Source: a virus (Duplodnaviria; Caudoviricetes). From it: 64,000 nucleotides of DNA. The stretch lies in the IMG/VR virus record IMGVR_UViG_3300009155_000035. The stretch is one strand, 5' to 3'. Numbering within the stretch: position 1 is the stretch's first letter; each line of letters opens with the position of its first letter. This document shows, in pieces, positions 8,410-55,064 of the stretch. The position numbers and the translations under genes were made by a program. The notes below the pieces were generated by a model. That model worked only from the letters and a program-made list of their open reading frames with translations, was not told the origin of the DNA and made no database searches.

Positions 8410-9119
8410 TGATAACTCAACGCTACAATTATGCACCCCTTGATAGAACAACCATTCAAGGCAAGCGACATTATTGTTTGCCCGACGGCAGTAAAGTACC
8501 TAGTGTCACTACTATCCTTGATAAAACTAAACCGGCTGAAGCTCGACAGGCATTGGCTAATTGGAAAAAGCGTGTAGGTGAAACCAAGGCACAGGAAATT
8601 ACTACAGAAGCCGCAAATCGAGGCACACGCATGCATTCCTACTTGGAACATTATGTATTGCAGGAAGACATGAAGCCCTTGCCAAATAATCCCTTTGCAC
8701 AACCATCATGGTTCATGGCCGCAGAGGTTATTCTTAAAGGTCTATGTAATGTGGATGAATTTTGGGGAGTAGAAGTTCCTGTTTACTACAGTGGCCTTTA
8801 TGCTGGCACCAGTGACTGCGTTGGCGTCTGGAAGGGCCGTCCAGCCATCATGGACTTTAAACAAACTAACAAACCCAAAAAGCGCGAATGGATCGAAGAT
8901 TATTTCTTACAACTTGCGGCCTATGCTCAAGCACATGATAACATGCATGGCACAAGTATTGATCAGGGCGTAATTTTAATGGCCGCTCAGCCCAAACTCT
9001 TGGAAGATGGCACATATACCACGCCAGAATATCAAGAGTTTGTGGTAGAAAAAGAAGAATTTGCTCACTGGAAAGATCAGTGGAATCGGCGAGTTGAGTT
9101 CTACTATTTGTCTAGCTAA
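8409..9119 (+). CDS. PD-(D/E)XK exonuclease
   Basis: PSVTTIL, RGTRMH, YAGTSD, IMDFKQ, QLAAY motifs. Confidence 0.8.
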   Translation: MITQRYNYAPLDRTTIQGKRHYCLPDGSKVPSVTTILDKTKPAEARQALANWKKRVGETKAQEITTEAANRGTRMHSYLEHYVLQEDMKPLPNNPFAQPSWFMAAEVILKGLCNVDEFWGVEVPVYYSGLYAGTSDCVGVWKGRPAIMDFKQTNKPKKREWIEDYFLQLAAYAQAHDNMHGTSIDQGVILMAAQPKLLEDGTYTTPEYQEFVVEKEEFAHWKDQWNRRVEFYYLSS

Positions 9120-9143
9120 ATACTGGCAAACGAGGATTTCAAC

Positions 9144-10718
9144 GTGGCCATAGTACAGATTTCAAGAATAACCAATCGTAAGGGTGCAACCGATAATTTG
9201 CCACAGCTGGCAGGTGCTGAGCTTGGGTGGTGTATTGACAGTCGTCGACTGTTCATTGGCAATGGTACTTTGCAAGAAGGTGCCCCGGTTATTGGGAACA
9301 CAGAAATCCTTACAGAATTTTCTGATATTACAGTTTTAAGTAACTACACATATCAAGATGTAGCTGTTGGATATATTGCGGAAACTGGCCCAAGCGCCAG
9401 CGACCCCACAATACGAACAGTACAAGCCAAACTTGATGATCAAGCTTGTGTGCGCGATTTTGGTGCAGTAGGTGATGGCATAACCGATGACACCGCAGCC
9501 ATTAATCGAGCACTGTACCAACTGTATTGCCGAGAGTCAAATCCACAAATTAGAAGAAGTTTGTTTTTCCCAGCTGGTGTTTACTTGGTCACAGAATCTA
9601 TTGTGATCCCAACTTATGCCAAGTTGATTGGCGAAGGTGCCGATTGCAGCGTTATTCTATTGTCTACTGATGACAGCTCAATACCGGACTATGTTGCACA
9701 ATATGGAGATAGTAGACTACAAACAGGCGTTAACATTGGTACCAATGGAGCCACACCACCTAGAAACATTGAAATTAGCTCAATGTCATTTCAATCAACT
9801 AATGTCACTGATATATTCTTGGTCAACTCTGCCACACAATGTTGGTTTGACAGTGTGAATTTTATTGGCCCAGTTACACAAACTGAAATTGAAGACAACG
9901 GATCAACCCCACTACCAGAAATTACTGGTGTGTCATTTGCTAGTAACGGAAGTCTTGTAACCAACGACATTACATTTGATAAATGCGGATTTAGCAACAT
10001 CACCACCGGTATTGGTACCGGCAATGTTATTCGAGCAGTCACTGTAAGCAACAGCAAATTCAATATACTGTTTCAAGGCATTGTGCTAACCAATGACGGT
10101 GACGGCGGAGCAACTGGATTTAGATCAGTGCATAACATGTTTGACAATATCTATGCTGAAGGTATTGTATATGATGACGTTAGTTTAAATGCATCGGCAT
10201 ATAACGTTTTTTACAATGTTGGTAATAGTATTGGTAGTGAAACACCCACAGGCCCTGTGATTACTTTTACAAATGACATTTGTGTATCTATCAATGACTT
10301 ATTTGAACGCAGTGATGCAGATGCGTTCACCTACCCTAGAATATCTATAAGTAACACTAGTTCTTCAACTGGTGGAACTCAATTAACGTTGGGTCGTTAT
10401 ACTCAAGAAAATGGTAAAACGTTTACACTTCAAAATGGTGTGTCCGGACAACCAATTTTTAATGTGAACCTAACATACACGAAAGCATTTCAAATGGAAT
10501 ATACAATTACTCGAGACACTGATGTTCGTCATGGTGTATTTGTAGTGGTACCATCTACAACAGGTACAGATCCCGCATACACAGATGACTTTACAGAATT
10601 TGGTAGCGTAGGGATTGAACTCTCAGCAATACAATCCGGAACACAAGTGTCCGTTGAATATGATTCAACAGTTAGCTTGCCCGGTACCTTAACTTATACC
10701 TTATCATATTTGGCCTGA
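9144..10718 (+). CDS. Tail fibre/spike with pectate-lyase-like beta-helix
   Basis: GAELGW...RLFIGNG N-terminus; VRDFGAVGDGITDDTAAINRAL; FFPAGVY; GTG start after GAGG. Confidence 0.75.
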   Translation: MAIVQISRITNRKGATDNLPQLAGAELGWCIDSRRLFIGNGTLQEGAPVIGNTEILTEFSDITVLSNYTYQDVAVGYIAETGPSASDPTIRTVQAKLDDQACVRDFGAVGDGITDDTAAINRALYQLYCRESNPQIRRSLFFPAGVYLVTESIVIPTYAKLIGEGADCSVILLSTDDSSIPDYVAQYGDSRLQTGVNIGTNGATPPRNIEISSMSFQSTNVTDIFLVNSATQCWFDSVNFIGPVTQTEIEDNGSTPLPEITGVSFASNGSLVTNDITFDKCGFSNITTGIGTGNVIRAVTVSNSKFNILFQGIVLTNDGDGGATGFRSVHNMFDNIYAEGIVYDDVSLNASAYNVFYNVGNSIGSETPTGPVITFTNDICVSINDLFERSDADAFTYPRISISNTSSSTGGTQLTLGRYTQENGKTFTLQNGVSGQPIFNVNLTYTKAFQMEYTITRDTDVRHGVFVVVPSTTGTDPAYTDDFTEFGSVGIELSAIQSGTQVSVEYDSTVSLPGTLTYTLSYLA

Positions 10719-26563: not shown

Positions 26564-26581
26564 CATAGTTTTCGCGTATAA

Positions 26582-26650
26582 TAAATAACAATGTAGCGCC
26601 GATGGTCGGGCTACACTTATAGTCAACTTGCTTATTAAAGGAGAAATGAC
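26582..26650 (+). ncRNA. ROSE-like RNA thermometer in hsp20 5' UTR
   Basis: TAAATA, hairpin TGTAGC..GCTACA, then CTTGCT-TATTAA-AGGAG pairing over the SD with bulged G. Confidence 0.7.
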
Positions 26651-27097
26651 ATGACTAAAATCACATCTTTTGATCTAACCCCCTTCTACCGTACATCAAT
26701 TGGCGTAGACCGCTTGTTTGATCGTATTATCAACCAAATTGATAATACGGCTACAGCAGGCACTAACTATCCCCCATACAATATTGTAAAAACTGGTGAG
26801 CATACCTTTGAACTACAATTAGCATTGGCTGGGTTTACACAAGGCGAAGTTGAAATCACTGTCAAAGATGGTGTAATTTCAATCACGGGCGAGAAGAAAA
26901 CTTCAAGTCTGCCCGAAGGACATGAGTACTACTACCAGGGTATCAGTGCTCGTAAGTTCTTCCGTAGTTGGCCTTTGGGTGATTACGTGGAAGTTGTTGA
27001 CGCTTTGATGCGTGATGGTATTTTAACTGTTCGTCTTGAACAACGAGTACCCGATGCCATGAAACCGAAAACAATTGAGATCGCATATCAAAACTAA
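26651..27097 (+). CDS. Small heat shock protein Hsp20 (IbpA-like)
   Basis: SIGVDRLFD, NYPPYNI, LALAGF, YQGISARKF, DGIL. Confidence 0.95.
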   Translation: MTKITSFDLTPFYRTSIGVDRLFDRIINQIDNTATAGTNYPPYNIVKTGEHTFELQLALAGFTQGEVEITVKDGVISITGEKKTSSLPEGHEYYYQGISARKFFRSWPLGDYVEVVDALMRDGILTVRLEQRVPDAMKPKTIEIAYQN

Positions 27098-38204: not shown

Positions 38205-39239
38205 CTATAAAGTATTTACACAAGATGCAATATCTTTGCACATTTCAACCTGCCAATTAAAATTCATGACATGATTGAAATTGTGCTCAACGACCGGGGC
38301 AATTTTTTGCTGTATCACAGCAGGATCTTGTGTGTGCAAATATGCAACCTGGTCCAGCATCATGTTCATTCGTTTTCCTGCATCGGGCTCTAAATCATAT
38401 GATTCGTCAACAACATCATTGAATGTTTTAAAACCCAGCAGTTTTAGATTTTGCAAATAGCGTTGGCCACCTTCAACTAAAAACAGCCTACGAGCCAACA
38501 TGGGTTTGATTATTTTTTCTGTAAAAAAGCTCCAGTTATTGTTGTTTGTAGTTTCCGCCACAATTGAATAGTGGGTTTGATTATATATGTCTACTGGTAT
38601 AATTTGACTCAAACTAACTATCACACCGTTTACTGTTACTTCTTGTACAGTAAAGTTTATTTCGGTGTTGGGACGATCAATTATTTCAACAGGCCAAGAA
38701 AATTCTTCATCATGGTATTTTGTTAAGTCTAAGTCTTGTGCTGTGGGGAAATATTTTACTATGTTATAGTCATGACTGATATTGTTAAAAATATAATCTC
38801 GATAGGGTTTTTTTCTTCCCAATAGCACGTCAAAACACCGCGACTTTTTAGAATCACTTAACCGAGACAGAATTTCTGGAAATTGCTTGTAAAAGTGTAC
38901 AGTGCTCCAAAACCAATACGAACAGAACTTGGCCCTGGCGTTTTGCAATGAATAATTTAGTTTGCCCCCAAGAAAGAATACCACGTTGTTAAAATCAAAC
39001 TTTTTGCAAATTTCATCGTCAAATAGTTCAAACATCATGATGATTACCAATTTGGATTCGCGTACTGCCGCTGACACAAGCTCATCTGCGGCTTTGTCAA
39101 ATACCATGAGTTCAATGATGCTGATTTTGTTTGATTGTTGCAACCAAGAGTCCCAGTCTGTGTGAGTGGTATAGTTAGCTAACCCTGATTCTTTGAGCCA
39201 CCATTGGCCTTGGTCACCGTGGAGGTAAATGTTATGCAT
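38205..39239 (-). CDS. Putative glycosyltransferase-like protein (paralog 2)
   Basis: SIVAET...FFTEKIIKPM...GFKTF..VDESYD; start reassigned 5 nt after minus-strand TAAATA. Confidence 0.5.
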   Translation of the reverse strand: MHNIYLHGDQGQWWLKESGLANYTTHTDWDSWLQQSNKISIIELMVFDKAADELVSAAVRESKLVIIMMFELFDDEICKKFDFNNVVFFLGGKLNYSLQNARAKFCSYWFWSTVHFYKQFPEILSRLSDSKKSRCFDVLLGRKKPYRDYIFNNISHDYNIVKYFPTAQDLDLTKYHDEEFSWPVEIIDRPNTEINFTVQEVTVNGVIVSLSQIIPVDIYNQTHYSIVAETTNNNNWSFFTEKIIKPMLARRLFLVEGGQRYLQNLKLLGFKTFNDVVDESYDLEPDAGKRMNMMLDQVAYLHTQDPAVIQQKIAPVVEHNFNHVMNFNWQVEMCKDIASCVNTL

Positions 39240-39263
39240 AATGATATTTACTAAATATAACAT

Positions 39264-39965
39264 ATGAGTGAAATTGTTTACACACTTGTAGTGACACATA
39301 TTACTATACTGTGTGTGACACTATTCTTGCACCGTGGTCAAGCACATAGAGCAGTGACCTTCCACCCGGCAATAGAGCATTTTATGCGTTTCTGGTTATG
39401 GATGACAACCGGACAAATTACCAAGCAGTGGGTCGCTGTGCATCGCAAGCATCATAGATTCACTGAACAACCGGGCGACCCGCACAGCCCGCACGTATTT
39501 GGATTTTGGAGAGTGCTGTTCAAGGGTGCTTTCTTGTATCATTCGGCAACCAAAGATTCTAAAATGGTCGCACAGTACGGGTCGGGTACTCCGGATGATT
39601 GGATGGAACGTAATGTCTACACTCCACATAGTCGACTGGGAATTATTCTGTTATTGTTGATAAATTTACTTTGTTTTTCCTGGTGGGGGTTATTGATATG
39701 GGGTATGCAAATGATTTGGATACCATTCTGGGCCGCTGGTGTTGTCAACGGTGTTGGTCATTGGTTGGGTTATAGAAACGGCGAAACCCGAGATCACAGT
39801 ACTAACTTCAGTCCTTGGGGTATTATTATAGGTGGTGAGGAATTACACAACAATCATCACTTGGATCCTGCCAGTGCTAAATTAAGCCGCAAGTGGTGGG
39901 AATTTGATATTGGGTGGACATGGATTTGTCTACTAGAACGATTTGAACTAGCCACAGTTCGGTAA
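39264..39965 (+). CDS. Membrane fatty-acid (acyl-lipid/CoA) desaturase
   Basis: His boxes HRGQAH, HRKHH, HNNHH; GDPHSP. Confidence 0.92.
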   Translation: MSEIVYTLVVTHITILCVTLFLHRGQAHRAVTFHPAIEHFMRFWLWMTTGQITKQWVAVHRKHHRFTEQPGDPHSPHVFGFWRVLFKGAFLYHSATKDSKMVAQYGSGTPDDWMERNVYTPHSRLGIILLLLINLLCFSWWGLLIWGMQMIWIPFWAAGVVNGVGHWLGYRNGETRDHSTNFSPWGIIIGGEELHNNHHLDPASAKLSRKWWEFDIGWTWICLLERFELATVR

Positions 39966-40004
39966 AAATTAGTGCCCGTTTACTAATAAAAATTGTGATT
40001 TATA

Positions 40005-40023
40005 TTGCAATGCAACATAAATA
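40005..40023 (+). promoter_or_regulatory. TTGC-N3-GCAA box fused to TAAATA late promoter (copy 1)
   Basis: TTGCAATGCAACATAAATA, identical to the reverse complement of 47544-47562. Confidence 0.7.
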
Positions 40024-40039
40024 AGTGTACAATAGAAAT

Positions 40040-40093
40040 ACAAGATGCCTGTATTGGGTCTTGTTCGTAAACTTGCTTAATAAGGAGAAAACT
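40040..40093 (+). ncRNA. ROSE-like SD-sequestering 5' UTR
   Basis: Hairpin ACAAGA..TCTTGT, then CTTGCT-TAATA-AGGAG. Confidence 0.55.
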
Positions 40094-40363
40094 ATGTTTA
40101 CAGCCGACACACTTATCGATACCGTACAAACCGGTAAAAAAACTTTGGTGAACACTTTTATCACCAACGAAACAGCCAAAGACGCAATGATCAAATTCAT
40201 TGACGCTCAGTCAGACTACACCAAAAAGGCCGCCAAAGTTAGCATGGACACATTTACTACACTATCTAGTGAAATGGTCAAAGCCAGTCAAAACGCCATG
40301 AAATTTGATTACGTCAAATTTGGTGAAGGCATTATGAAGGCTTACACCGCCAAAGCCAATTAA
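40094..40363 (+). CDS. Phasin-like helical protein
   Basis: MFTADTLIDTVQTGKK...; amphipathic helical pattern; start set by the AGGAG SD; phasin call is inference. Confidence 0.45.
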   Translation: MFTADTLIDTVQTGKKTLVNTFITNETAKDAMIKFIDAQSDYTKKAAKVSMDTFTTLSSEMVKASQNAMKFDYVKFGEGIMKAYTAKAN

Positions 40364-40380
40364 ATCTGACCAAAATCAGG

Positions 40381-40409
40381 TTGACCAGTAATCCTGTTCA
40401 TGTTATATT
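40381..40409 (+). promoter_or_regulatory. Early promoter
   Basis: TTGACC-17-TATATT; ATG 5 nt downstream. Confidence 0.6.
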
Positions 40410-40414
40410 ACAGC

Positions 40415-40627
40415 ATGAGCAGGATTTTTATTATTGTCTCTATATTGATAGCAGGGTGCGCACAGGCTCCAAAAGTACCTGTTGATGTTGCCCTAATTCC
40501 CAACGATTGTGCGAACCGGCATGCCATTATTCGATGGCTTGAATCGGTGCTTGAAACGGATAAAAGCAATGAAAGTGCTATTAAAGCCCGCATTTGGACT
40601 TTGCGTTATAGCTGTCAGCCTGTTTAA
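40415..40627 (+). CDS. Lipoprotein
   Basis: Lipobox LIAGC. Confidence 0.6.
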   Translation: MSRIFIIVSILIAGCAQAPKVPVDVALIPNDCANRHAIIRWLESVLETDKSNESAIKARIWTLRYSCQPV

Positions 40628-40904
40628 TACTGGATGCGCAACTGGGCAATATCAACCCATGGCAGTAGACGACCTTGATCGATTTCAAATTGATTGTCGC
40701 ATCAAAGAACAACAAATCCGTTTCCTTCAAGGCATGAGAGCCACGCAGGATGATAGATTTCTTGCAGGCGCAAACAATTTGGTTCGTCCCTGGGCCATAG
40801 CAACTAATTTCCCAGAATACAAACACCGTGTGTTAGTCAACAACGGATATACTAACTGGAGCATCAATCAACTGTTGATGCGCATATCGCACGATTGCCC
40901 ATGA
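40569..40904 (+). CDS. Putative lipoprotein
   Basis: Hydrophobic N-terminus ending NTGC. Confidence 0.5.
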   Translation: MKVLLKPAFGLCVIAVSLFNTGCATGQYQPMAVDDLDRFQIDCRIKEQQIRFLQGMRATQDDRFLAGANNLVRPWAIATNFPEYKHRVLVNNGYTNWSINQLLMRISHDCP

Positions 40905-41464
40905 AAAAAATTATACCTTTGATGCTGTTGGCTTCTACAGCCCTGGCTGATGATAACTGTGTGTTACAAGAACGCACAGTAACCACAAACTCCACTGTGA
41001 TTTTGGAACGTAGCACTATTCGTCGTGATGTTGTGCCGTACGGTGCCAACCAAAAGAAATGCATAGTTGATTTTCGTGTGAGAATCAAAGGGGAGTGGTA
41101 CACTGCATTTGGTGAACACATTTGGTCGGGCGACACTCCCAGTTCACAAGCCTGTGCTGTTGCAGTCAATCGTGCAGAAGCAGATGCCATTTCCAGAGTT
41201 GCCCGCAGTAGTGTCACAAACGAACGAACCTTGGTGTGCAAGGATAGACCAGAATTAAAAACTCTACGTAACAGTCAAATTGGCACAGTTGGTGATGCTG
41301 GACAGTTTAGGCCACACCCAGACTATCCAAAACGATTTTACCATAATGGTGTCCAGTGTCGCTGGTTCGTAGAACCCTCATTCACTGGCAATGATGTGCG
41401 CATGTTCCAGGGAGTGGTTTGTGAAGTCCAAGATCAGAAATGGGTAGTTGTGGACAAATTTTAA
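40901..41464 (+). CDS. Secreted protein
   Basis: Signal peptide MKKIIPLMLLASTALA; several Cys. Confidence 0.65.
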   Translation: MKKIIPLMLLASTALADDNCVLQERTVTTNSTVILERSTIRRDVVPYGANQKKCIVDFRVRIKGEWYTAFGEHIWSGDTPSSQACAVAVNRAEADAISRVARSSVTNERTLVCKDRPELKTLRNSQIGTVGDAGQFRPHPDYPKRFYHNGVQCRWFVEPSFTGNDVRMFQGVVCEVQDQKWVVVDKF

Positions 41465-41465
41465 C

Positions 41466-41494
41466 TTGACTGGATATTGCGTTTCTTGTACAAT
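41466..41494 (+). promoter_or_regulatory. Early promoter
   Basis: TTGACT-17-TACAAT. Confidence 0.65.
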
Positions 41495-41525
41495 TGTGTT
41501 ATGTTAAAATTACCAGGAGGTAAAA

Positions 41526-41654
41526 ATGGGCAAATTTATAGCAGGCACAATTTTTGGAATTGCGCTAGCCACAGTGGGATTCAGTGGCATCGCTAGAATC
41601 ATGGATCGAGGTGTTGACACTGTAAAAACACAAACTCAGGAAATTGCACGATGA
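41526..41654 (+). CDS. Small membrane protein (42 aa)
   Basis: AGGAGG SD; MGKFIAGTIFGIALATVGFSG... Confidence 0.65.
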   Translation: MGKFIAGTIFGIALATVGFSGIARIMDRGVDTVKTQTQEIAR

Positions 41655-41773
41655 AACATTTGATTATGATTGCTGTATTAGCAGTGCTCACAGGATGTGG
41701 AACTATGGGCGGTATGGTCGGTGGTGCAGGCGACGACCTTAAAAAAGCCGGCGATTGGATTAAAACTCGTTAA
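41651..41773 (+). CDS. Entericidin-like small lipoprotein (40 aa)
   Basis: MKHLIMIAVLAVLTGCGTMGGMVGGAGDDLKKAGDWIKTR. Confidence 0.65.
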   Translation: MKHLIMIAVLAVLTGCGTMGGMVGGAGDDLKKAGDWIKTR

Positions 41774-41781
41774 GGATAATC

Positions 41782-42357
41782 ATGAAAAACTTTATTGTAT
41801 TGGCTGTTGTATCAACGCTGGCAGCTTGTAGTTCTGCTCCCAAAGACACGTTTGAACGCAGGGCTTACGAAGAACAACGACAGCAAGAGAAGAACGTTGA
41901 ACGTGCAATTGATCAAGCACCCAAGTGGATGACTGAACTTCCCAAGTCAGCTTCTGCGGTGTACCAAAATGGTACCTCTGTTAGCCCCGATATGAGCATG
42001 AGCGTTAGCAAGGCCAAGACTGTGGCCTTTGGTAAAATTTGTATGGCAGCAGGCGGCAAAGTAAATCAGCAAAGCAAAATTTATCGCACCGACAGTGACA
42101 ATGCCAGCACTGAATTTTCTGAACTGGCTATCAAGAGCTTTTGTCCCAATGTGGACATCACTGGAGTAGAGGTAGTAGAAACCAAGATGGTATCTGAGGG
42201 CAGTCGATTTAGAACTTACGTACTGATTGCATTGCCCACCGGACCGGCCAATCCCATGGCACGTGAGCGAGATGCACGAGAACAACGCAGGATCGCTGAA
42301 ACACGCAGTCGTGAAGCATTTAAAGAGATGGAACAAACATCCAAACAGCCACAGTGA
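41782..42357 (+). CDS. Lipoprotein
   Basis: Lipobox LAAC; PKWM. Confidence 0.7.
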   Translation: MKNFIVLAVVSTLAACSSAPKDTFERRAYEEQRQQEKNVERAIDQAPKWMTELPKSASAVYQNGTSVSPDMSMSVSKAKTVAFGKICMAAGGKVNQQSKIYRTDSDNASTEFSELAIKSFCPNVDITGVEVVETKMVSEGSRFRTYVLIALPTGPANPMARERDAREQRRIAETRSREAFKEMEQTSKQPQ

Positions 42358-42374
42358 GTTAAGTGGTGCATGAC

Positions 42375-42398
42375 AAAACCGGGCATTGCCCGGTTTTT
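42375..42398. terminator. Bidirectional terminator
   Basis: AAAACCGGGC-att-GCCCGGTTTTT. Confidence 0.85.
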
Positions 42399-42401
42399 CT
42401 C

Positions 42402-43133
42402 TTAATAAGTTAAGTGTTCATTTGTTTTGAAAGGCTTGCCCAAGCAGGCATTGTCAAGCTGACACATCACTTTGTGTCTTAGGCGCCGAATAATTTTGTG
42501 TTTGGTGTCCCAGTTGAATGCTTTTAAGTATCGATAATAAGATGTGCGTTTGTGACGTCGTGCATTACAGCTTGCCAGGTACTGACCAATGGTGTCGGGA
42601 TCGTACCCAAATCTCTCAATCATTTCGCAGGCAATGTTAAAACTAAATGCGCCCATTTCATCAGTGTCACCGTAGTACTCTTGTTCTCGACGATCTTTAG
42701 CACGTTCAGCTGTGCTCAGATATCCAGGTATGGCTTTGAACTTTCTTGCTCGATATTGCCGCATGTGTACAACTTCGTGCAATATAGTATCAGCAAACAA
42801 ACGACACATCCGTTGAAATCGATATTTTGTTAGATATATCTTTTCGTCAAGAATGTTGTAGTTGAAGTTGACCTCTATGGGTCTTGACTGGTGCTTGCAA
42901 TCGATATTGCTATAGTACATGCCACCAATGTAAATCCAACCTGGGTCGGTGGTTGTGTCTTTGAGATTCTTTACACGGATGGGAAGATTACGCCGAATAT
43001 GGCTGCTCAAGATTTTTTGAATTTGTGCCACAGGTATTTCGCGATTGGTCACTTGGTTGCATATTGAATACAACAAGCTATACAAATTATCACGAGTTAA
43101 CAAAGCCCAATTATACGGTTTTCGATTTGACAC
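42402..43133 (-). CDS. HExxH (zincin-like) protein
   Basis: TILHEVVHMRQY...Y..DTDEMGAF. Confidence 0.55.
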   Translation of the reverse strand: MSNRKPYNWALLTRDNLYSLLYSICNQVTNREIPVAQIQKILSSHIRRNLPIRVKNLKDTTTDPGWIYIGGMYYSNIDCKHQSRPIEVNFNYNILDEKIYLTKYRFQRMCRLFADTILHEVVHMRQYRARKFKAIPGYLSTAERAKDRREQEYYGDTDEMGAFSFNIACEMIERFGYDPDTIGQYLASCNARRHKRTSYYRYLKAFNWDTKHKIIRRLRHKVMCQLDNACLGKPFKTNEHLTY

Positions 43134-43189
43134 AGTTATCTCCCACGTACATTATTACTTAGTGTACTAGAAGATTTGGGCATAGTCAA

Positions 43190-44551
43190 TTAATCGCTGA
43201 CCTGATAACCAATTTTGCCCTTGTCTTCTTGAGCCGAGCTCTTGGTTCTAAGCTTGACTTGGCCGTCAATTTGAGCAGGCCAGAACGCTTTGGTAACAAG
43301 TTTGCCATTCTTGATGTTACTGTAAATCTGCACAAAGTTAAATCCCAAACTGGTTAGAATAGCTTCGCGGAAGTTAGGCACAGCACCTGCATTGACCAGT
43401 TTCATTACGTCGTTAATCACAGCATAAAATACCTTGCCGCCATCGGTGGCATTGCCATTTGCCACTTGCGGGCTTAGTCTAGAAGCAGTGGCTTTCATTA
43501 ATTTCGGAGGTAACTTTCCTCCGTTGTGCTTAAAGCTAGTGACAATGTCTTGCACTTCGTCTGGCTGCCAGGGCAAATATGGGCGCCAGGCTTCGGGCAC
43601 TAATTCGGGCTGATATTGATAAAACCAGTTCATCAGCGCAAATGGTTGCGTTACACCACTGAGTCCTGGTTCTTGTGCTTTCTTGATAAAGCTATAGGCT
43701 TCGGGATATTTTTTCTTTAAAAAATCCGGTACCTTGAGTGATGTCAGTGCTGGTGGTGCGCCTTTTCCAGCAGCCTTGCTGGACATGGCAAGAGCATTAC
43801 CTGTTGCACGATTTAACAATCCATAACTGTCAGCAATGGGGTTATTGCTGGCCTTGGGAAAATACAACAACAAGCTTCCTAGATCTTGACCAACCCACTC
43901 TAAAAATGATTCTCGCTTGGGAAAGTCAGCAACACCATTCAACACACTCATTACACCCAAGAATTCACTTGCGTACAATTCAATGGCTTTTTGTTCTTGT
44001 GCGCTGAGATTGGGTGGTACTGTTGGTACTTGACCTTGCGTGATTTGTTTGGCCATGGCAATAACAGCATCGCCTACTTGACCCAGGTCTTTTAAATGAG
44101 AGCTAGCAATTTTATTGTAGATATCACTGGCAGGAAAACCACCAAAGTCCAAAATGGTTTGTACGCCAGACTCTAACTTTTCAGGGTCTACGTCAGTGCT
44201 GGGGAAAACATCTGACGGCTTGATAGGAATGCCTTCACTTTCTTTGCTGCCAAATTCTACAGTTTTTTGCAGTTCAGTATTCTTAACTGGAGTACCATCA
44301 ATGGTTTGCATGTTAATCACACCCGACGGCCCGCTTTTTAACCAAGCAGTTACATTTTTTGCTTCTTTGGGATCAATGGTTACTTCATCACCACTGACAG
44401 TGGTAAATGGCAGTTTATTGATGACCTTGTAAAGAAATAACTCTTGACGAGTGAATGGCTTTCCAGTCTTGGGATTTTTGACCCCACTTAGCTTGTTAGC
44501 CGGTATTTCGTTTGCCCCTAGCTTGGCCTCGGTTAAATCTTGTAATCGCAT
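43190..44551 (-). CDS. Hypothetical protein
   Basis: Start reassigned to MRLQDLTE, 4 nt after TAAATA (44556-44561). Confidence 0.6.
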   Translation of the reverse strand: MRLQDLTEAKLGANEIPANKLSGVKNPKTGKPFTRQELFLYKVINKLPFTTVSGDEVTIDPKEAKNVTAWLKSGPSGVINMQTIDGTPVKNTELQKTVEFGSKESEGIPIKPSDVFPSTDVDPEKLESGVQTILDFGGFPASDIYNKIASSHLKDLGQVGDAVIAMAKQITQGQVPTVPPNLSAQEQKAIELYASEFLGVMSVLNGVADFPKRESFLEWVGQDLGSLLLYFPKASNNPIADSYGLLNRATGNALAMSSKAAGKGAPPALTSLKVPDFLKKKYPEAYSFIKKAQEPGLSGVTQPFALMNWFYQYQPELVPEAWRPYLPWQPDEVQDIVTSFKHNGGKLPPKLMKATASRLSPQVANGNATDGGKVFYAVINDVMKLVNAGAVPNFREAILTSLGFNFVQIYSNIKNGKLVTKAFWPAQIDGQVKLRTKSSAQEDKGKIGYQVSD

Positions 44552-44582
44552 GGTGTATTTATTACAATAAATAGATGCCACT

Positions 44583-45563
44583 ATGATAACAATTCCTATT
44601 AGAACCTGTGGAGATCACTGGATCAACGTTGAAGAAGTTAAAACACAGCTTGAAAACGCTGGTAGCGCAAGTGCTATTGAATTAGACTTTTTTTGCGAAG
44701 GCAGTAGTCTCGACGCCCTGGGCATCACACCAGTGGTATTAGATCATTGCTTGAAACACAACATAAGTCCTGACAAAATAATCATTGCCAACTGGCCTAA
44801 CTCAGTTGAAGACATACCTTTCCAGCGCAAATATATGCCCTTGATGAGTCACTTTTTTTGGCTCAGCGAGCGTTACTGGTGCGACATTGTACCTTCAACA
44901 CATCAGTACAGATTTGGTTATTTTGTCGGAAGGCGGACTCCGTCACGAGCCACAATGTTGTACGAACTCTATCATCAACATCGTGACAATTTCCTGTTCA
45001 GTGTTATGGGTCAGTTGCCACCCATGCCCTGGGATACAGCGCCAGATGGCAACTATGCTGAACAACTAGACCAGTGGGTCAACCCTAATAAACAAGAACA
45101 ATTTGTACAGTGGTGGCGTAACTGTCCCGTGCCCAGTATCGACAGCACATTTATCAATCATCAATATGATCCAAGGTTTAATACCAATCAGAGTTTGATA
45201 TCTCATTACGACCAGTTTGATATTGAACTGGTTGCTGAAACATTTACCCTGGGCACAGCATTCTTTCCCACAGAAAAAACAATACGTCCCTTGGTGACCG
45301 GGAAGCCCATAATTGTATACGGGCCTGCAAATTATTTGTCCCGACTAAAAAATCTTGGATTTAAAACATTTAACAGTGCATGGGACGAAAGTTATGATCA
45401 ATATCAAGGTCCTGAGAGATGGCATAAAATACACAATGTGATTAGCACATTCTTGAGTAACCCTCAAGATGAACAGCTAGACATAGTTGCCAGTGTGCAA
45501 CCAATTGTTGAACACAATCGTCGTAATTTAATAAAAATAATTGGAAAATATAAACCTTTATGA
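44583..45563 (+). CDS. Putative glycosyltransferase-like protein (paralog 3)
   Basis: ELVAET...FFPTEKTIRPL..GKP...GFKTF...DESYD. Confidence 0.5.
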   Translation: MITIPIRTCGDHWINVEEVKTQLENAGSASAIELDFFCEGSSLDALGITPVVLDHCLKHNISPDKIIIANWPNSVEDIPFQRKYMPLMSHFFWLSERYWCDIVPSTHQYRFGYFVGRRTPSRATMLYELYHQHRDNFLFSVMGQLPPMPWDTAPDGNYAEQLDQWVNPNKQEQFVQWWRNCPVPSIDSTFINHQYDPRFNTNQSLISHYDQFDIELVAETFTLGTAFFPTEKTIRPLVTGKPIIVYGPANYLSRLKNLGFKTFNSAWDESYDQYQGPERWHKIHNVISTFLSNPQDEQLDIVASVQPIVEHNRRNLIKIIGKYKPL

Positions 45564-46552
45564 TTGTACATACTGTTGACGAAGGCTGGGGACTTGATTG
45601 GCCAATCAAACAATTTGAAAAAGAAATTCTGGACCAGTACCTAGCACCAATAAGAAACGACTCCTCAAAAACTGTGTTGATCAACAGTGTGTGGTATACC
45701 ACTGATTTACATCAACAAACATTATCACAACTAAGACACATGGATTTTAATCGAATTGTTCTTGTGTCTACACTAGACTGTTCTATCCCACAGCCGGACT
45801 GGTTTGCAGAATTCAATTGTGAAGTAATTGGAGTTGGGTATTATCCGGGTGAAGGTTACATTGATTTGTGGGCTCTTGTTGTTGACAAATATTTTAATCT
45901 TGAAAAATACACGTTTGGAGATGCATCGGCAATTGACACGGCATACATGTGCTTGAACAGAAAACCCCACCATCACCGACGTCGTTTATATAAACAGTTA
46001 ACAAGTGCAAATCTGCTGGATCAAGGCATAGTAAGTCTAGGTGGCGACGAAAACTATCCTGCACAACGCATATTGACACTTGATGACGGAATGTCATATA
46101 TTGCACCAAACCCCGGCAAAGAACAACACGGCATTGCTAATGACATTGCCAGTCTAGGACACCCAGAAAATTGGCAAAGACACTTTTTAAATGTGGTGAC
46201 TGAAACAGTATGGGATATCAGCAAACTGCATTTTGTCAGTGAAAAAATATTTAAACCCATTGTTGGGGAAAAGCCGTTTATATTGTACGATCCCACCGGC
46301 GGAGACACATGGTTTCGCGACAGAGGATTTGCTACCTTCTATCAAGATTTCGGTGACATAACTGACTTGGACATTGCCAAAGATACAAATCAACCGCTGT
46401 TTTTACAAGCTCTTTGCAAGCAACCAAAAAGTTATTTGAGCTCCAAATACGTTGCATTGCAAGACAAAATCCTGTACAATAAACATAGATTCAGTGAATA
46501 CGTAGCTGAACAAAAGACCAAAATTAAACAAGGAATACAATGCCAAATCTAG
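45560..46552 (+). CDS. Putative glycosyltransferase-like protein (paralog 4)
   Basis: CLNRKP...NVVTET...[14 protein letters not shown]...GFATF. Confidence 0.5.
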
Positions 46553-47133
46553 TACCAATGGTTCTTGAACAAACAAGCAAGGGTGAACGCAGTTACGACA
46601 TCTACAGTCGCTTGCTAAGAGATCGTGTTATTTTGCTTGAAGGTGAAGTGCATGATCAAATGGCAAATTTAGTTGTTGCTCAGTTGTTGTATCTAGAGAG
46701 TGAAGACCCAGACAAAGACATCAGCTTGTATATCAACAGTCCCGGTGGGTCAGTGACAGCTGGAATGGCCATTTACGATGCCATGCAGTTTATCCGTTCT
46801 GATGTGCAAACCATTGTCATGGGACAGGCCTGCTCCATGGGGTCATTGTTGGCACAATCTGGTGCCAGGGGCAAGCGCAGTATTCTACCCAATGCTCGTC
46901 ACATGATTCACCAGCCCTCGGGTGGCGCACGTGGTCAGGCCACTGACATGGAAATTCAAGTACGAGAGATTTTAGCTATGAAGAAGAGTTTAACCCAGAT
47001 CTATGTTGATCACAACAGTGCTGAGAAAACCTTTGACGAACTCAGCCGAGACATGGAACGTGATAACTTTATGACAGCCGAACAGGCTGTGGCTTATGGG
47101 CTAGCCGATAAAGTCATCAATCGACGCAGTTAA
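46540..47133 (+). CDS. clpP: ATP-dependent Clp protease proteolytic subunit
   Basis: [20 protein letters not shown] (Ser), MIHQP (His), RDNFM (Asp). Confidence 0.97.
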
Positions 47134-47231
47134 ATCCAGCCTGCAAATTCATCGGGATCAATGATGGGATGAACTTCCCATCCGTCCCGAGCCCAACGTA
47201 ATAGCATCAAAAGTGAGTCCAAATAGTTCAT
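47130..47231 (-). CDS. Small protein (33 aa)
   Basis: [33 protein letters not shown]; AAGGAG SD. Confidence 0.6.
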
Positions 47232-47244
47232 TAATACAACTCCT

Positions 47245-47349
47245 TTACTTCCAATAATGGTATCTGCTGGCGGGACTTTGGCGATATTCGTGGATTATCT
47301 CTGCCCAAGACATTAATCCGTTAATGAATTTATTTAGAATATGTTTCAT
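47245..47349 (-). CDS. Small protein (34 aa)
   Basis: MKHILNKFINGLMSWAEIIHEYRQ...; ATGA overlap with the upstream ORF. Confidence 0.5.
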   Translation of the reverse strand: MKHILNKFINGLMSWAEIIHEYRQSPASRYHYWK

Positions 47350-47501
47350 AATCCGTAGTCCTTTTGATTATAACGTTCGATCCAGTAATTGACTTCGCCT
47401 TCACTTTGAATGTTTTTTGATTTTAAATACTGCTCTAAACGAGTTTGATAATCTTGTTTGGGGAACATTTCTGCTAATCTCTCTAATAGTCGTGCTATCA
47501 T
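47346..47501 (-). CDS. DUF3563-like small protein (51 aa)
   Basis: MIARLLERLAEMFPKQDYQTRLEQYLKSK...EVNYWIERY; AAGGAG SD; family name from recall. Confidence 0.6.
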   Translation of the reverse strand: MIARLLERLAEMFPKQDYQTRLEQYLKSKNIQSEGEVNYWIERYNQKDYGL

Positions 47502-47543
47502 ATTTTCTCCTTGTTAATGTAGATACTCGTGGTTTCTACGGAG

Positions 47544-47562
47544 TATTTATGTTGCATTGCAA
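47544..47562 (-). promoter_or_regulatory. TTGC-N3-GCAA box fused to TAAATA late promoter (copy 2)
   Basis: Reverse complement identical 19/19 to 40005-40023. Confidence 0.7.
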
Positions 47563-47624
47563 CAACACTCGTGGTTTCTACTGAGTGTTGCACAAACACA
47601 ACACCAAAAAACACCAGATTTCAG

Positions 47625-47677
47625 TTGACCAGAATCTGCTCATTTGCTATAATAGAAGCATAGTAAGAAACAAAGGA
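47625..47677 (+). promoter_or_regulatory. Early promoter cassette
   Basis: TTGACC-17-TATAAT, then AGAAGCATAGTAAGAAACAAAGGA (30 nt identical to 62495-62524). Confidence 0.85.
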
Positions 47678-47684
47678 ACTTTAG

Positions 47685-47963
47685 ATGTCATACGTAATCG
47701 TTGCTAGAGGTACAGGTCTTATCGTTACAGACGGTCCTAACAAAACTCGTGCCTACAAAACTTATGGTGCCGCCCGTGCCACTCGCACCCGTCTCTGCCG
47801 CAAAGCAGGTTGGAGTGCCGGTGATTTGAGCATTGTGGCTCGCGACACTTATGTGGCGCCCAAAATCACAGTTAAGAATTTGATGACGGGCAAGCCCGTG
47901 GAAATTGACGCAGACACCCCTTGGTGTTGCAATCCTGCCAGCGAAACTTATTGGAGCATGTGA
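47685..47963 (+). CDS. Early hypothetical protein
   Basis: Follows promoter/SD; ends CCNPASETYWSM. Confidence 0.7.
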   Translation: MSYVIVARGTGLIVTDGPNKTRAYKTYGAARATRTRLCRKAGWSAGDLSIVARDTYVAPKITVKNLMTGKPVEIDADTPWCCNPASETYWSM

Positions 47964-47964
47964 T

Positions 47965-48108
47965 ATGAAGGTTGTTTATAACAGTTTATTGTCGGGTTGG
48001 TTCATTGTGCGCGGCGCACATCAAACCCCCATCTCGGGACGTTTTGAAACCAAAGAACAGGCCCTGGCCCACTTGCGCCGACGCGACCCTTTTCATACTG
48101 GGTTGTAA
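47965..48108 (+). CDS. Small early protein
   Basis: MKVVYNSLLSGWFIVRG...; start reassigned. Confidence 0.55.
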   Translation: MKVVYNSLLSGWFIVRGAHQTPISGRFETKEQALAHLRRRDPFHTGL

Positions 48109-53786: not shown

Positions 53787-55064
53787 TTAGAATGCTTTGC
53801 GCATGCCAATTGCAAATGCGTCAATGGCTTGTCCCTTGGCAGGAGCACCTGCTGTCATACCAAAGATTGGGCCCATATTGGCGTTACCTTGGTTGTCAGC
53901 ACGACTATACAATGCAAACACTGCAAACGTTTTAGAAAAATTGTATTGACCATACACAGAAGTCAAGTTAACTTTGTTTGCGTCAACTGTTTTGTCCACA
54001 ACTGCTGTGTACTGTGCGGCAACACGAGTTCGATCATTGACTTTATAACTGACACCAAGAGCATTGGCATCAAAATCATTGCCATACGCAGTACCAACTG
54101 GAGCATTGCGTGCGGCAGTGATAATACCGCTAGCAGAAATGCTCATTGGAGTCGTCATGCAGTTACCACCAGATTTGGTTTCACTGCACTGGCCCCATCG
54201 AGCACCAAAGTAACCATACTTGAATGTAAGGTCTTTATATGTGTATGCGGCACCGGCCATTTGGGTTTTTAGCTGGGTAGCACCGGTGTTGTCGTTAACA
54301 TCTTGTACGCCAACTAGTGCTGAGAATGGACCTTTTTCATATTCGACCACAACGTTGCGTTGACCTTGTTGTTCGAATTCGTTGCTGGCAGTTGGACCAT
54401 TCTGGTTCATTCCCCACATGGCATGAACAGTGACACCGTTGTAAGTTGGTGACTTCCAGCCAATACCGTTGCTGTAGTTGTTGGGACCACCGTTGATACC
54501 GGACACATTCAAGTCTGGATTAAGTGGAGCAACTACACCACTCAACATACGATTACCGGATGAACCGTGTCCGGTCAATGTACCGTTGACTGCACCAATA
54601 CCACCAGAGGCAATACCAAGCGCATCCAAACGTGTGGACATGTAAAATTGTGGAGTCAATTGACGTCCAAGTGTAAAGTTACCAACTGTTGGTGTGATTA
54701 TTTCCAAGTTGGCTTTGCGATAAAACAACGAGGTAGAACCACCCGAAATAGCATAACCATTACCAGGGTTGGTACCACCAACACCGCTTAACGACGAGCT
54801 AACATTACCACTGTTGGTATTAACTGCGGTTTCCAAGTTAACTGATGCTTTGTACCCACCAGCAATGTCGTGTGTTCCACGGAAGCCCAATGAGCTGTTG
54901 CCTAAAACAGAACTGGACATATTAAATGCGTTGAGTCCCGGGGCATTGTGTGCAACACCGGCAATATTCAAATTGCCATAAATTTGAAGTGGTGCTTCTT
55001 GCGACTGCGCCTGCGCAGTAGAGAACCCCGCGGCAATAAGCAGAGGTAGAAGTAGTTTTTTCAT
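53787..55064 (-). CDS. Gram-negative outer-membrane porin
   Basis: Signal peptide, LQIYG, SSLGFRGTHDI, LGRQ, C-terminal GMRKAF. Confidence 0.88.
   Translation of the reverse strand: MKKLLLPLLIAAGFSTAQAQSQEAPLQIYGNLNIAGVAHNAPGLNAFNMSSSVLGNSSLGFRGTHDIAGGYKASVNLETAVNTNSGNVSSSLSGVGGTNPGNGYAISGGSTSLFYRKANLEIITPTVGNFTLGRQLTPQFYMSTRLDALGIASGGIGAVNGTLTGHGSSGNRMLSGVVAPLNPDLNVSGINGGPNNYSNGIGWKSPTYNGVTVHAMWGMNQNGPTASNEFEQQGQRNVVVEYEKGPFSALVGVQDVNDNTGATQLKTQMAGAAYTYKDLTFKYGYFGARWGQCSETKSGGNCMTTPMSISASGIITAARNAPVGTAYGNDFDANALGVSYKVNDRTRVAAQYTAVVDKTVDANKVNLTSVYGQYNFSKTFAVFALYSRADNQGNANMGPIFGMTAGAPAKGQAIDAFAIGMRKAF

Follow-up and report, generated by a model that had tools for sequence, protein, structure and literature searches.

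In a stretch of DNA from an uncultured giant phage of freshwater (IMG/VR record IMGVR_UViG_3300009155_000035, Caudoviricetes; the whole 64-kb stretch of 64,000 nucleotides is called the window) the 19-mer TTGCAATGCAACATAAATA occurs exactly twice, at 40005-40023 on the plus strand (site 1) and at 47544-47562 on the minus strand (site 2). Both copies are 19/19 identical, face inward and lie 7.5 kb apart, and the pair is a real, conserved two-site control element. Site 1 precedes P0001, an open reading frame (ORF) for 89 aa, and site 2 precedes an operon of three micro-proteins, P0002 to P0004 (Table 1). As best explanation we propose, with modest confidence, that an operator of the type bound by PhaR, the regulator of polyhydroxybutyrate (PHB) storage in the putative host, was fused to phage promoters. 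Judged from the sequence, a small phasin-like protein and the micro-protein operon are probably coupled to the carbon reserve of the host in this way.

A two-site element kept in related phages

The identical pair had been reported in an earlier reading of the same DNA (the first-pass annotation) and was borne out here: none of 100 dinucleotide-preserving shuffles gave three matches at up to three mismatches, the mean being 0.08. The third listed match (39997-40015, minus strand) corresponds to the opposite arm of site 1, itself part of a 27-bp near-palindrome at 39997-40023. Inspection of both sites also confirmed that a TTGC-N3-GCAA palindrome abuts TAAATA in each copy, the adjoining stretch being (C)ATAAATA. 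Site 1 lies 71 nt upstream of P0001 and site 2 lies 43 nt upstream of P0002, and the genes downstream of both sites are as originally described.

Deposited phages yielded no megablast match to positions 39000-48000 of the window. In IMG/VR many relatives of 300-365 kb were found, two of them complete with terminal repeats. Three near-complete relatives (G001 to G003; two at 100%, one at 97%) served for comparison, among them G001 as a complete genome of 352,754 bp, which keeps the gene order desaturase, box, P0001 ... clpP, P0004, P0003, P0002, box. Non-coding TGCRNYGCA boxes are restricted to the two orthologous promoters in the window as well as in G001, and a relaxed form of the 19-mer occurs only two to three times per genome in three relatives of about 350 kb each. 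Because the box is limited to these two promoters, the pair amounts to a regulon of two promoters rather than to a promoter class.

The proposal that related phages should carry the motif upstream of the same genes was followed up, and the box is kept at P0001 as well as at P0002 homologues. Upstream of P0001 homologues from 80 viral loci the succession of TGTTGC-N3-GCAACA, an AT-rich stretch and TACAAT or TATAAT recurs. Of the 63 distinct regions upstream of these genes, 43 contain TGC-N3-GCA, which elsewhere in the same loci has a background of 0.033 per 100 nt. The box is placed 21-23 nt upstream of the -10 element in 46 of 65 distinct promoters, which makes TTGCNN the -35 element with a spacer of 17-18 nt. 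In these promoters GTTGC and GCA(A/G)C are constant on either side of a 3-nt centre that drifts, the pattern R-N-Y being obeyed in 41 of the 46. Promoters of P0002 homologues contain a box with N3 or N4 spacing in 24 of 46 cases.

The exact 19-mer was furthermore detected in seven other viral contigs, always upstream of genes for small proteins (five P0002-like operons and two others). An exact copy at 4012-4030 of contig L005 (IMGVR_UViG_3300032753_000003) precedes a gene for a DUF1127 protein (E 1.5e-11), and another at 787-805 of contig L003 (IMGVR_UViG_3300028948_000703) precedes a gene for a borderline DUF3563 protein (E 2.8e-5). The predicted operator thus travels with differing small-protein genes.

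Likeness to PhaR operators and competing explanations

Four consensus sequences for operators of PhaR, PhbF or AniA, defined experimentally or by regulon analysis, were used for comparison: the footprint-confirmed PhbF operator TG[N]TGC[N]3GCAA of Herbaspirillum seropedicae (PMC3206438), the PhaR operator TGCRNYGCASMA of Bradyrhizobium diazoefficiens, where the phaP4 site overlaps the -35 element and TGCATTGCAACA is among the listed sites (PMC6201568), the consensus W2N2YGCRNYGCRN2W2 of Sinorhizobium meliloti (bioRxiv 10.1101/2025.02.17.638283) and the consensus YTKNTGCRNYGCANMAR of Ralstonia eutropha, in which PhaR represses phaP1 and activates phaP3 (PMC12849132). The core TGC-R-N-Y-GCA, which is present at sites 1 and 2 and in a weak third box, fits all four consensuses with the AT-rich arms included, and the previously noted resemblance to PhaR operators therefore stands.

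TG-N-TGC-N3-GCAA is matched by site 1 on the minus strand, by site 2 on both strands and by site 3, the third box, on neither; it occurs five times in the window against 0.82 times expected in shuffles, and three of the five occurrences fall on sites 1 and 2. The S. meliloti form is matched by both of these sites. With at most three mismatches allowed to the R. eutropha 17-mer, site 1 (three mismatches) and site 2 (one on either strand) pass and site 3 (four) fails. Site 2 contains TGCATTGCAACA, which in B. diazoefficiens is listed as a site of bsr4236. In five sampled Pseudomonadota genomes a YGCRNYGCR box was located not more than 220 nt upstream of seven out of 12 Phasin_2 genes, often in two copies, and one of these bacterial boxes (TTGTTGCAATGCACAAT) shares 15 of 17 positions with site 2.

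The third box, TTGCATTGCAA with the core TGCATTGCA, had been overlooked in the first-pass annotation. It is located 78 nt upstream of clpP, its TACAAT 60 nt upstream, and was rejected as a conserved member of the set: it lies in coding sequence, has four mismatches to the 17-mer and is not kept in G001 to G003. Readings of the motif as a sigma54, sigma32, CRP or MerR-type site were dropped by eye, as spacing or half-sites did not fit.

No PHB_acc_N domain, the DNA-binding domain of PhaR, is encoded in G001 to G003. Since these near-complete relatives lack it, a host factor would be required if PhaR is the binder, and with no PhaR encoded by the phage, the box is probably read by the PhaR of the host. 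According to the explanation we favour, the 19-mer would be a composite element, in which a PhaR-type operator (TTGC-N3-GCAA) is joined to promoter elements. At P0001 the left half-site would be the -35 element TTGCAA and the right half-site would occupy the spacer, and a dimer bound at this promoter would obstruct RNA polymerase in the manner of PhaR at bacterial phaP promoters. In front of the micro-proteins the operator adjoins NTAAATA, probably a T4-like late promoter element. Host PhaR would leave the DNA for nascent PHB granules, so that a PHB store, present or being built up in the infected cell, would turn both units on. The product of P0001 could then coat the granules or serve as a phasin-type chaperone. 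Translation of P0001 would be under a second layer of control, with a ROSE-like leader whose U(U/C)GCU masks the Shine-Dalgarno (SD) sequence; the leader of the phage hsp20 gene is of the same kind.

The bacterial model for this arrangement is the PhaR/PhbF/AniA-phaP circuit of R. eutropha, H. seropedicae, B. diazoefficiens, S. meliloti and Rhodobacter sphaeroides. It shares with the phage element the TGC-R-N-Y-GCA palindrome with its AT-rich arms, the placement over or beside the -35/-10 elements of a sigma70-type promoter and the position upstream of a gene for a small helical protein. The logic of that circuit, a repressor titrated by PHB granules, would be the same in the phage. In contrast to the bacterial circuit, the phage genome has no phaR of its own, the controlled protein has 89 aa and is marginally Phasin_2-like, and the phage adds the micro-protein operon as a second target, the NTAAATA phage promoter and the ROSE-like leader.

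The nature of P0001 bears on this explanation as well. More than 1000 close homologues were found, which form 385 clusters at 50% identity and are all small proteins. An AlphaFold2 model built with 38 homologues is all-helical with three helices (predicted local distance difference test, 88.5), and its top match among the clusters of the AlphaFold database is a phasin-domain protein, a weak match with E 0.8. Neighbours of P0001 in language-model and protein-atlas space are clusters of Phasin_2, PHB_acc and PHA_synth_III_E, again weak with every score below 0.9. Among 117 representatives of the P0001 family, 25 gave weak Pfam matches to Phasin_2 (E <= 0.1, best 1.2e-4), other families being matched by three representatives at most. 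A Foldseek search of the PDB with the model returned generic helical matches only (E > 1), and a fold search of the ESM atlas returned no match. From sequence and model we regard it as an even call whether P0001 may be a divergent short phasin. The designation "phasin-like" of the first-pass annotation is weakly supported by the all-helical model, by the weak Phasin_2 matches of relatives and by the weak structure and atlas neighbours, but neither by a family match of P0001 itself nor by a significant profile alignment.

Several observations weigh against the PhaR explanation. P0001 has no Pfam match even at E 10 and none in PHROGs or NCBIfam; its alignment with ten bacterial phasins by hhalign was not significant (P 0.014, probability 3%), with the N-termini in register; its hydrophobic moment is not above that of shuffled sequence (p 0.24); and with 89 aa it has half the length of typical phasins (about 150-200 aa). 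The strict B. diazoefficiens 12-mer TGCRNYGCASMA has no match in the window, the phage boxes carrying A at its S position (position 10). Those of the 65 P0001-homologue promoters with a different layout are mostly N4 or displaced variants, and five are without a box; at the micro-protein operon the N4 spacing (TGTGC-N4-GCACA) is found in about one third of the relatives and fits none of the four consensuses. With so short a core, about one to two non-coding copies per 350 kb are expected by chance, and the argument draws on orthologous placement and conservation rather than on counts. With a box at only one out of 13, bacterial DUF3563 genes offer no precedent for PhaR control of the micro-protein operon. 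PhaR is able to activate, too, and the sign of the regulation may thus be either. Finally, neither of two phage genes points to a host: a pattern scan with the phage porin revealed no bacterial relative, and ClpP was uninformative and gave no host signal.

Some of these points would be accommodated if the palindrome were the operator of a different dimeric regulator, encoded by the phage or supplied by the host, and its resemblance to PhaR sites coincidental. The core amounts to only about 14 bits, the N4-spaced variants (TGTGCGATCGCACA) that are common at the micro-protein operon of relatives fit no PhaR consensus, and bacterial DUF3563 genes lack the box. Jumbo phages moreover encode many unannotated proteins, and most ORFs of the 7.5-kb block belong to no family. 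We nevertheless consider a different regulator rather unlikely: all four PhaR consensuses fit down to the AT-rich arms, near-identical boxes precede sampled bacterial phasin genes, the controlled gene itself offers weak phasin leads, and no candidate phage regulator was identified.

An explanation without any repressor would take the 19-mer as intrinsic promoter sequence (a -35 element together with its spacer or an extended element, recognised by the sigma70 of the host or by a phage-modified polymerase) that recombination copied from one promoter to the other. Spacers are normally not conserved, yet the right half-site GCA(A/G)C is kept in 46 diverged promoters while the 3-nt centre drifts; in the micro-protein operons of relatives, box and TAAATA are separated by anything between 2 and about 14 nt, and because of this variation the box has to be regarded as a separate module; and none of the other approximately 48 NTAAATA promoters of G001 contains the box. 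TTGCAA does make a good -35 element, TACAAT following after a spacer of 17 nt, ATAAATA is of a motif class that in G001 is over-represented before genes, and the 19/19 identity could stem from recent gene conversion, but on balance we judge this explanation improbable. A chance repeat or assembly artefact without function, for which the shortness of the motif and nothing else speaks, can practically be dismissed, as no shuffle reached the observed count and the same arrangement recurs in independently assembled relatives.

Promoters, leader and small proteins

Table 1. Positions of the predicted control elements and genes in the window.
Feature	Position	Strand	Description
Operator 1 (predicted)	40002-40018		PhaR-type palindrome ATATTGCAATGCAACAT; core TGCAATGCA at 40006-40014
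P0001 promoter (predicted)	40005-40033	+	-35 TTGCAA 40005-40010, 17-nt spacer, -10 TACAAT 40028-40033; near-consensus sigma70-type
ROSE_3-like 5' untranslated region (predicted)	40039-40099	+	hairpin I 40040-40064; hairpin II 40072-40087; AUG 40094
P0001	40094-40363	+	89 aa, three-helix (predicted)
Weak third box	46452-46480	+	TTGCATTGCAA at 46452-46462, with TTGCAT-N17-TACAAT; inside 3' end of ORF 45560-46552
P0004	47130-47231	-	33-aa peptide
P0003	47245-47349	-	34-aa peptide
P0002	47346-47501	-	51 aa, first gene of the micro-protein operon
Promoter region of the micro-protein operon (predicted)	47525-47562	-	box, then ATAAATA (47544-47550), then CTCC-GTAGAAACCACGAGT (47525-47539)
Operator 2 (predicted)	47549-47565		PhaR-type; perfect 15-bp palindrome TGTTGCATTGCAACA at 47550-47564; core TGCATTGCA
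Second GTAGAAACCACGAGT copy	47567-47581	-	15-mer upstream of operator 2, 42 bp from the first copy

Predicted operator 1 overlaps the -35 element of the P0001 promoter, as PhaR operators do at bacterial phaP promoters, the left half-site being identical with the -35 element. The spacer of this promoter includes CATAAATA (40016-40023), a motif of the T4 late type, and about half of the P0001 relatives have TATAAT without TAAATA. T4-type late promoters consist of TATAAATA and are read by gp55. A TAAATA-type motif is likewise found upstream of genes in G001, where its first base is variable: NTAAATA is located 15-63 nt upstream of about 48-50 genes, many of them large, which is approximately 10-20 times above expectation. 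Counted separately, NATAAATA precedes 29 genes (1.5 expected) and [CT]TAAATA 30 genes (3.7 expected); in the window a motif of the NTAAATA type was found upstream of genes eight times against 0.8 expected. NTAAATA is thus probably the T4-like late promoter class of this lineage. Because of this enrichment the designation "late promoter" given in the first-pass annotation is plausible for the micro-protein operon. For P0001 it is only partly so, since a near-consensus sigma70-type promoter is predicted there and about half of the relatives do without TAAATA.

At the micro-protein operon the downstream copy of GTAGAAACCACGAGT begins 4 nt after ATAAATA, and the two copies flank operator 2, an arrangement also present in G001 (L007). 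A further element that had escaped the first reading is AGTAGAAAC, which follows NTAAATA at a distance of 3-5 nt and is kept in about 30 promoters of the micro-protein operon of relatives; at other NTAAATA promoters of G001 it was not found. Since RNAalifold detected no consensus structure in 24 leaders of P0002 operons, AGTAGAAAC is regarded as a sequence element and not as a conserved hairpin. Divergent from the operon promoter, a near-consensus sigma70 promoter (TTGACC-N17-TATAAT, 47625-47653) points rightward to a 92-aa gene at 47685-47963.

Between promoter and start codon of P0001 a leader is predicted that was missed in the first-pass annotation. The Rfam model ROSE_3 (RF02523) matched it over its full length with 29.4 bits (E 1e-4 in a small search), below the gathering score of 43; leaders at the same place in four relatives reached 25.8-34.4 bits, and none of 20 loci attained the gathering score. 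In hairpin II, UUGCU (40073-40077, with bulged G 40075) pairs with the SD sequence AGGAG (40083-40087). The structure is backed by comparison of 59 distinct leaders. In hairpin I compensatory changes occur in nine of 11 pairs, the number of doubly changed cells was 93 compared to 28 in shuffles (none of 500 shuffles was as high), and 93% of the cells are paired, as opposed to 34-59% when the partners are slid. In hairpin II, U(U/C)GCU with bulged G pairs with the SD sequence in 99% of the cells, U and C alternating opposite G. Minimum free energy folding of the P0001 leader was no better than that of shuffles (z = -0.49). The probability of a paired SD sequence calculated with ViennaRNA, a model that is poor on the bulged-G helix, was 0.60 at 5 °C and 0.37 at 42 °C, only a modest change with temperature. 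By covariation and model match, the predicted 5' untranslated region of P0001 is a two-hairpin ROSE_3-like element.

The short ROSE-like thermometers of Pseudomonas ibpA consist of two hairpins, with U(U/C)GCU and a bulged G paired to the SD sequence (PMC3669281). The P0001 leader resembles them in a stable 5' hairpin I with a bulge, in a hairpin II masking the SD sequence and in an AUG just 3' of it. It differs from them in a score below the gathering cut-off, in its association with a gene outside the heat-shock response and with a promoter that is not of the sigma32 type, and thermosensing by the phage leader is putative. The phage hsp20 gene (26651-27097, PF00011, E 5.5e-16) has a ROSE_3-like leader of its own at 26590-26656 (28.8 bits), situated behind TATAATAAATA; a PhaR-type box upstream of this gene was not found (window positions 26577-27097). 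As a side observation, GUAAAC (40067-40072) can pair with GUUUAC (40098-40103, codons 2-3 of the conserved MFT start) and would enclose SD sequence and AUG; GTAAAC is kept in most relatives, with variants that show no compensation.

In a lake metatranscriptome a 331-nt contig identical to 40056-40386 was found, which is weak evidence of transcription, as it gives neither the start nor the level of the RNA and may be due to carry-over of DNA.

P0002 has 72 relatives in viral contigs. The first-pass annotation had called this protein "DUF3563-like", and this designation finds no support: P0002 has no Pfam match at E 10 and none in PHROGs or NCBIfam, and a profile of 36 phage homologues compared with eight DUF3563 (PF12086) proteins scored about 1 bit, which means no similarity. 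An acquisition of the operon from a bacterial PhaR regulon is accordingly unsupported, given the single DUF3563 gene with a box among 13 and a P0002 profile unlike DUF3563. Homologues of all three small ORFs occur in the same order in G001 with 57-68% identity. P0003 is 68% identical in G001, and a similar second ORF with an F..MSWA motif follows a P0002-like gene in contigs L001 and L002; for P0004 the identity is 61-66% in G001 and G003. At 47130-47133 clpP (plus strand) and P0004 (minus strand) converge and overlap in their stop codons.

Genomic setting and possible meaning for the host-phage relationship

The window encodes a ribonucleotide reductase, a DNA ligase, a ClpX-like ATPase, ClpP, UvdE, a Gram-negative porin (53787-55064; Porin_4, E 1.5e-28), a fatty-acid desaturase and tail-like proteins. 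In the 7.5-kb block between the two sites most ORFs are without a family, and PHROGs and NCBIfam gave no match for P0001 to P0004 or the neighbouring ORFs. The four large ORFs of the block have no Pfam match, and because Pfam is silent on them no polyhydroxyalkanoate (PHA) enzyme was recognised in the block. The mobilisation of PHA suggested in the first-pass annotation is hypothetical. Directly 3' of P0001, at 40415-41464, small genes with lipoprotein signals are located (MSRIFIIVSILIAGC at 40415), the part at 40895-41464 with a weak 17-kDa-antigen-like match; this stretch of small genes is syntenic in G001 and G002. Within the bracketed block G001 contains a second, distant ClpP-like gene with about 25% identity (offsets 8745-9269 of the joined stretch, about 348744-349268), and G002 and G003 have such a gene likewise; the same place in the window is taken by two unannotated minus-strand ORFs (42402-44581). 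The top relatives of the phage ClpP (66-76% identity) are found on contigs of Bacteroidota metagenome-assembled genomes (MAGs), namely L165 (NZ_JBBAKG010000031.1, a 'Haliscomenobacter' MAG) and L166 to L168. Probably these contigs are phage DNA that was binned wrongly and do not reflect the host.

Boxes of host regulators on phage genes are known from PhoB sites before cyanophage pstS and phoA, from NtcA sites in cyanophage promoters and from LexA and Fur sites in temperate phages. The idea is the same here, a lytic phage that would use a nutrient-status regulator of its host for a few auxiliary genes, whereas the putative sensor PhaR reads a carbon-storage polymer and not phosphate, nitrogen, iron or DNA damage. 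In our literature search no paper was found that describes phasins of phages or phage genes under PhaR control.

Taken further, and here we can offer only a speculative picture that we ourselves hold to be doubtful, this lineage of freshwater jumbo phages may read two host signals at P0001, PHB by way of PhaR and temperature or the proteotoxic state by way of the ROSE-like leader. A granule-coating protein might then seize the PHB granules by displacing phasins, PhaR or the depolymerase, so that stored carbon could fuel phage production in nutrient-limited lakes, with the micro-protein operon being co-deployed.

It is known that phages time the expression of their genes with phosphate, nitrogen, iron and SOS regulators of their hosts, and a link to the sensor of PHB storage would, if true, be a new case. 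A viral ROSE-type leader before a gene other than a heat-shock gene would also be new, and a large family of short phasin-like proteins would be added. Giant lytic phages of abundant freshwater bacteria would then tune infection to how much carbon each cell has in reserve and may also remodel the granules in which it is stored.

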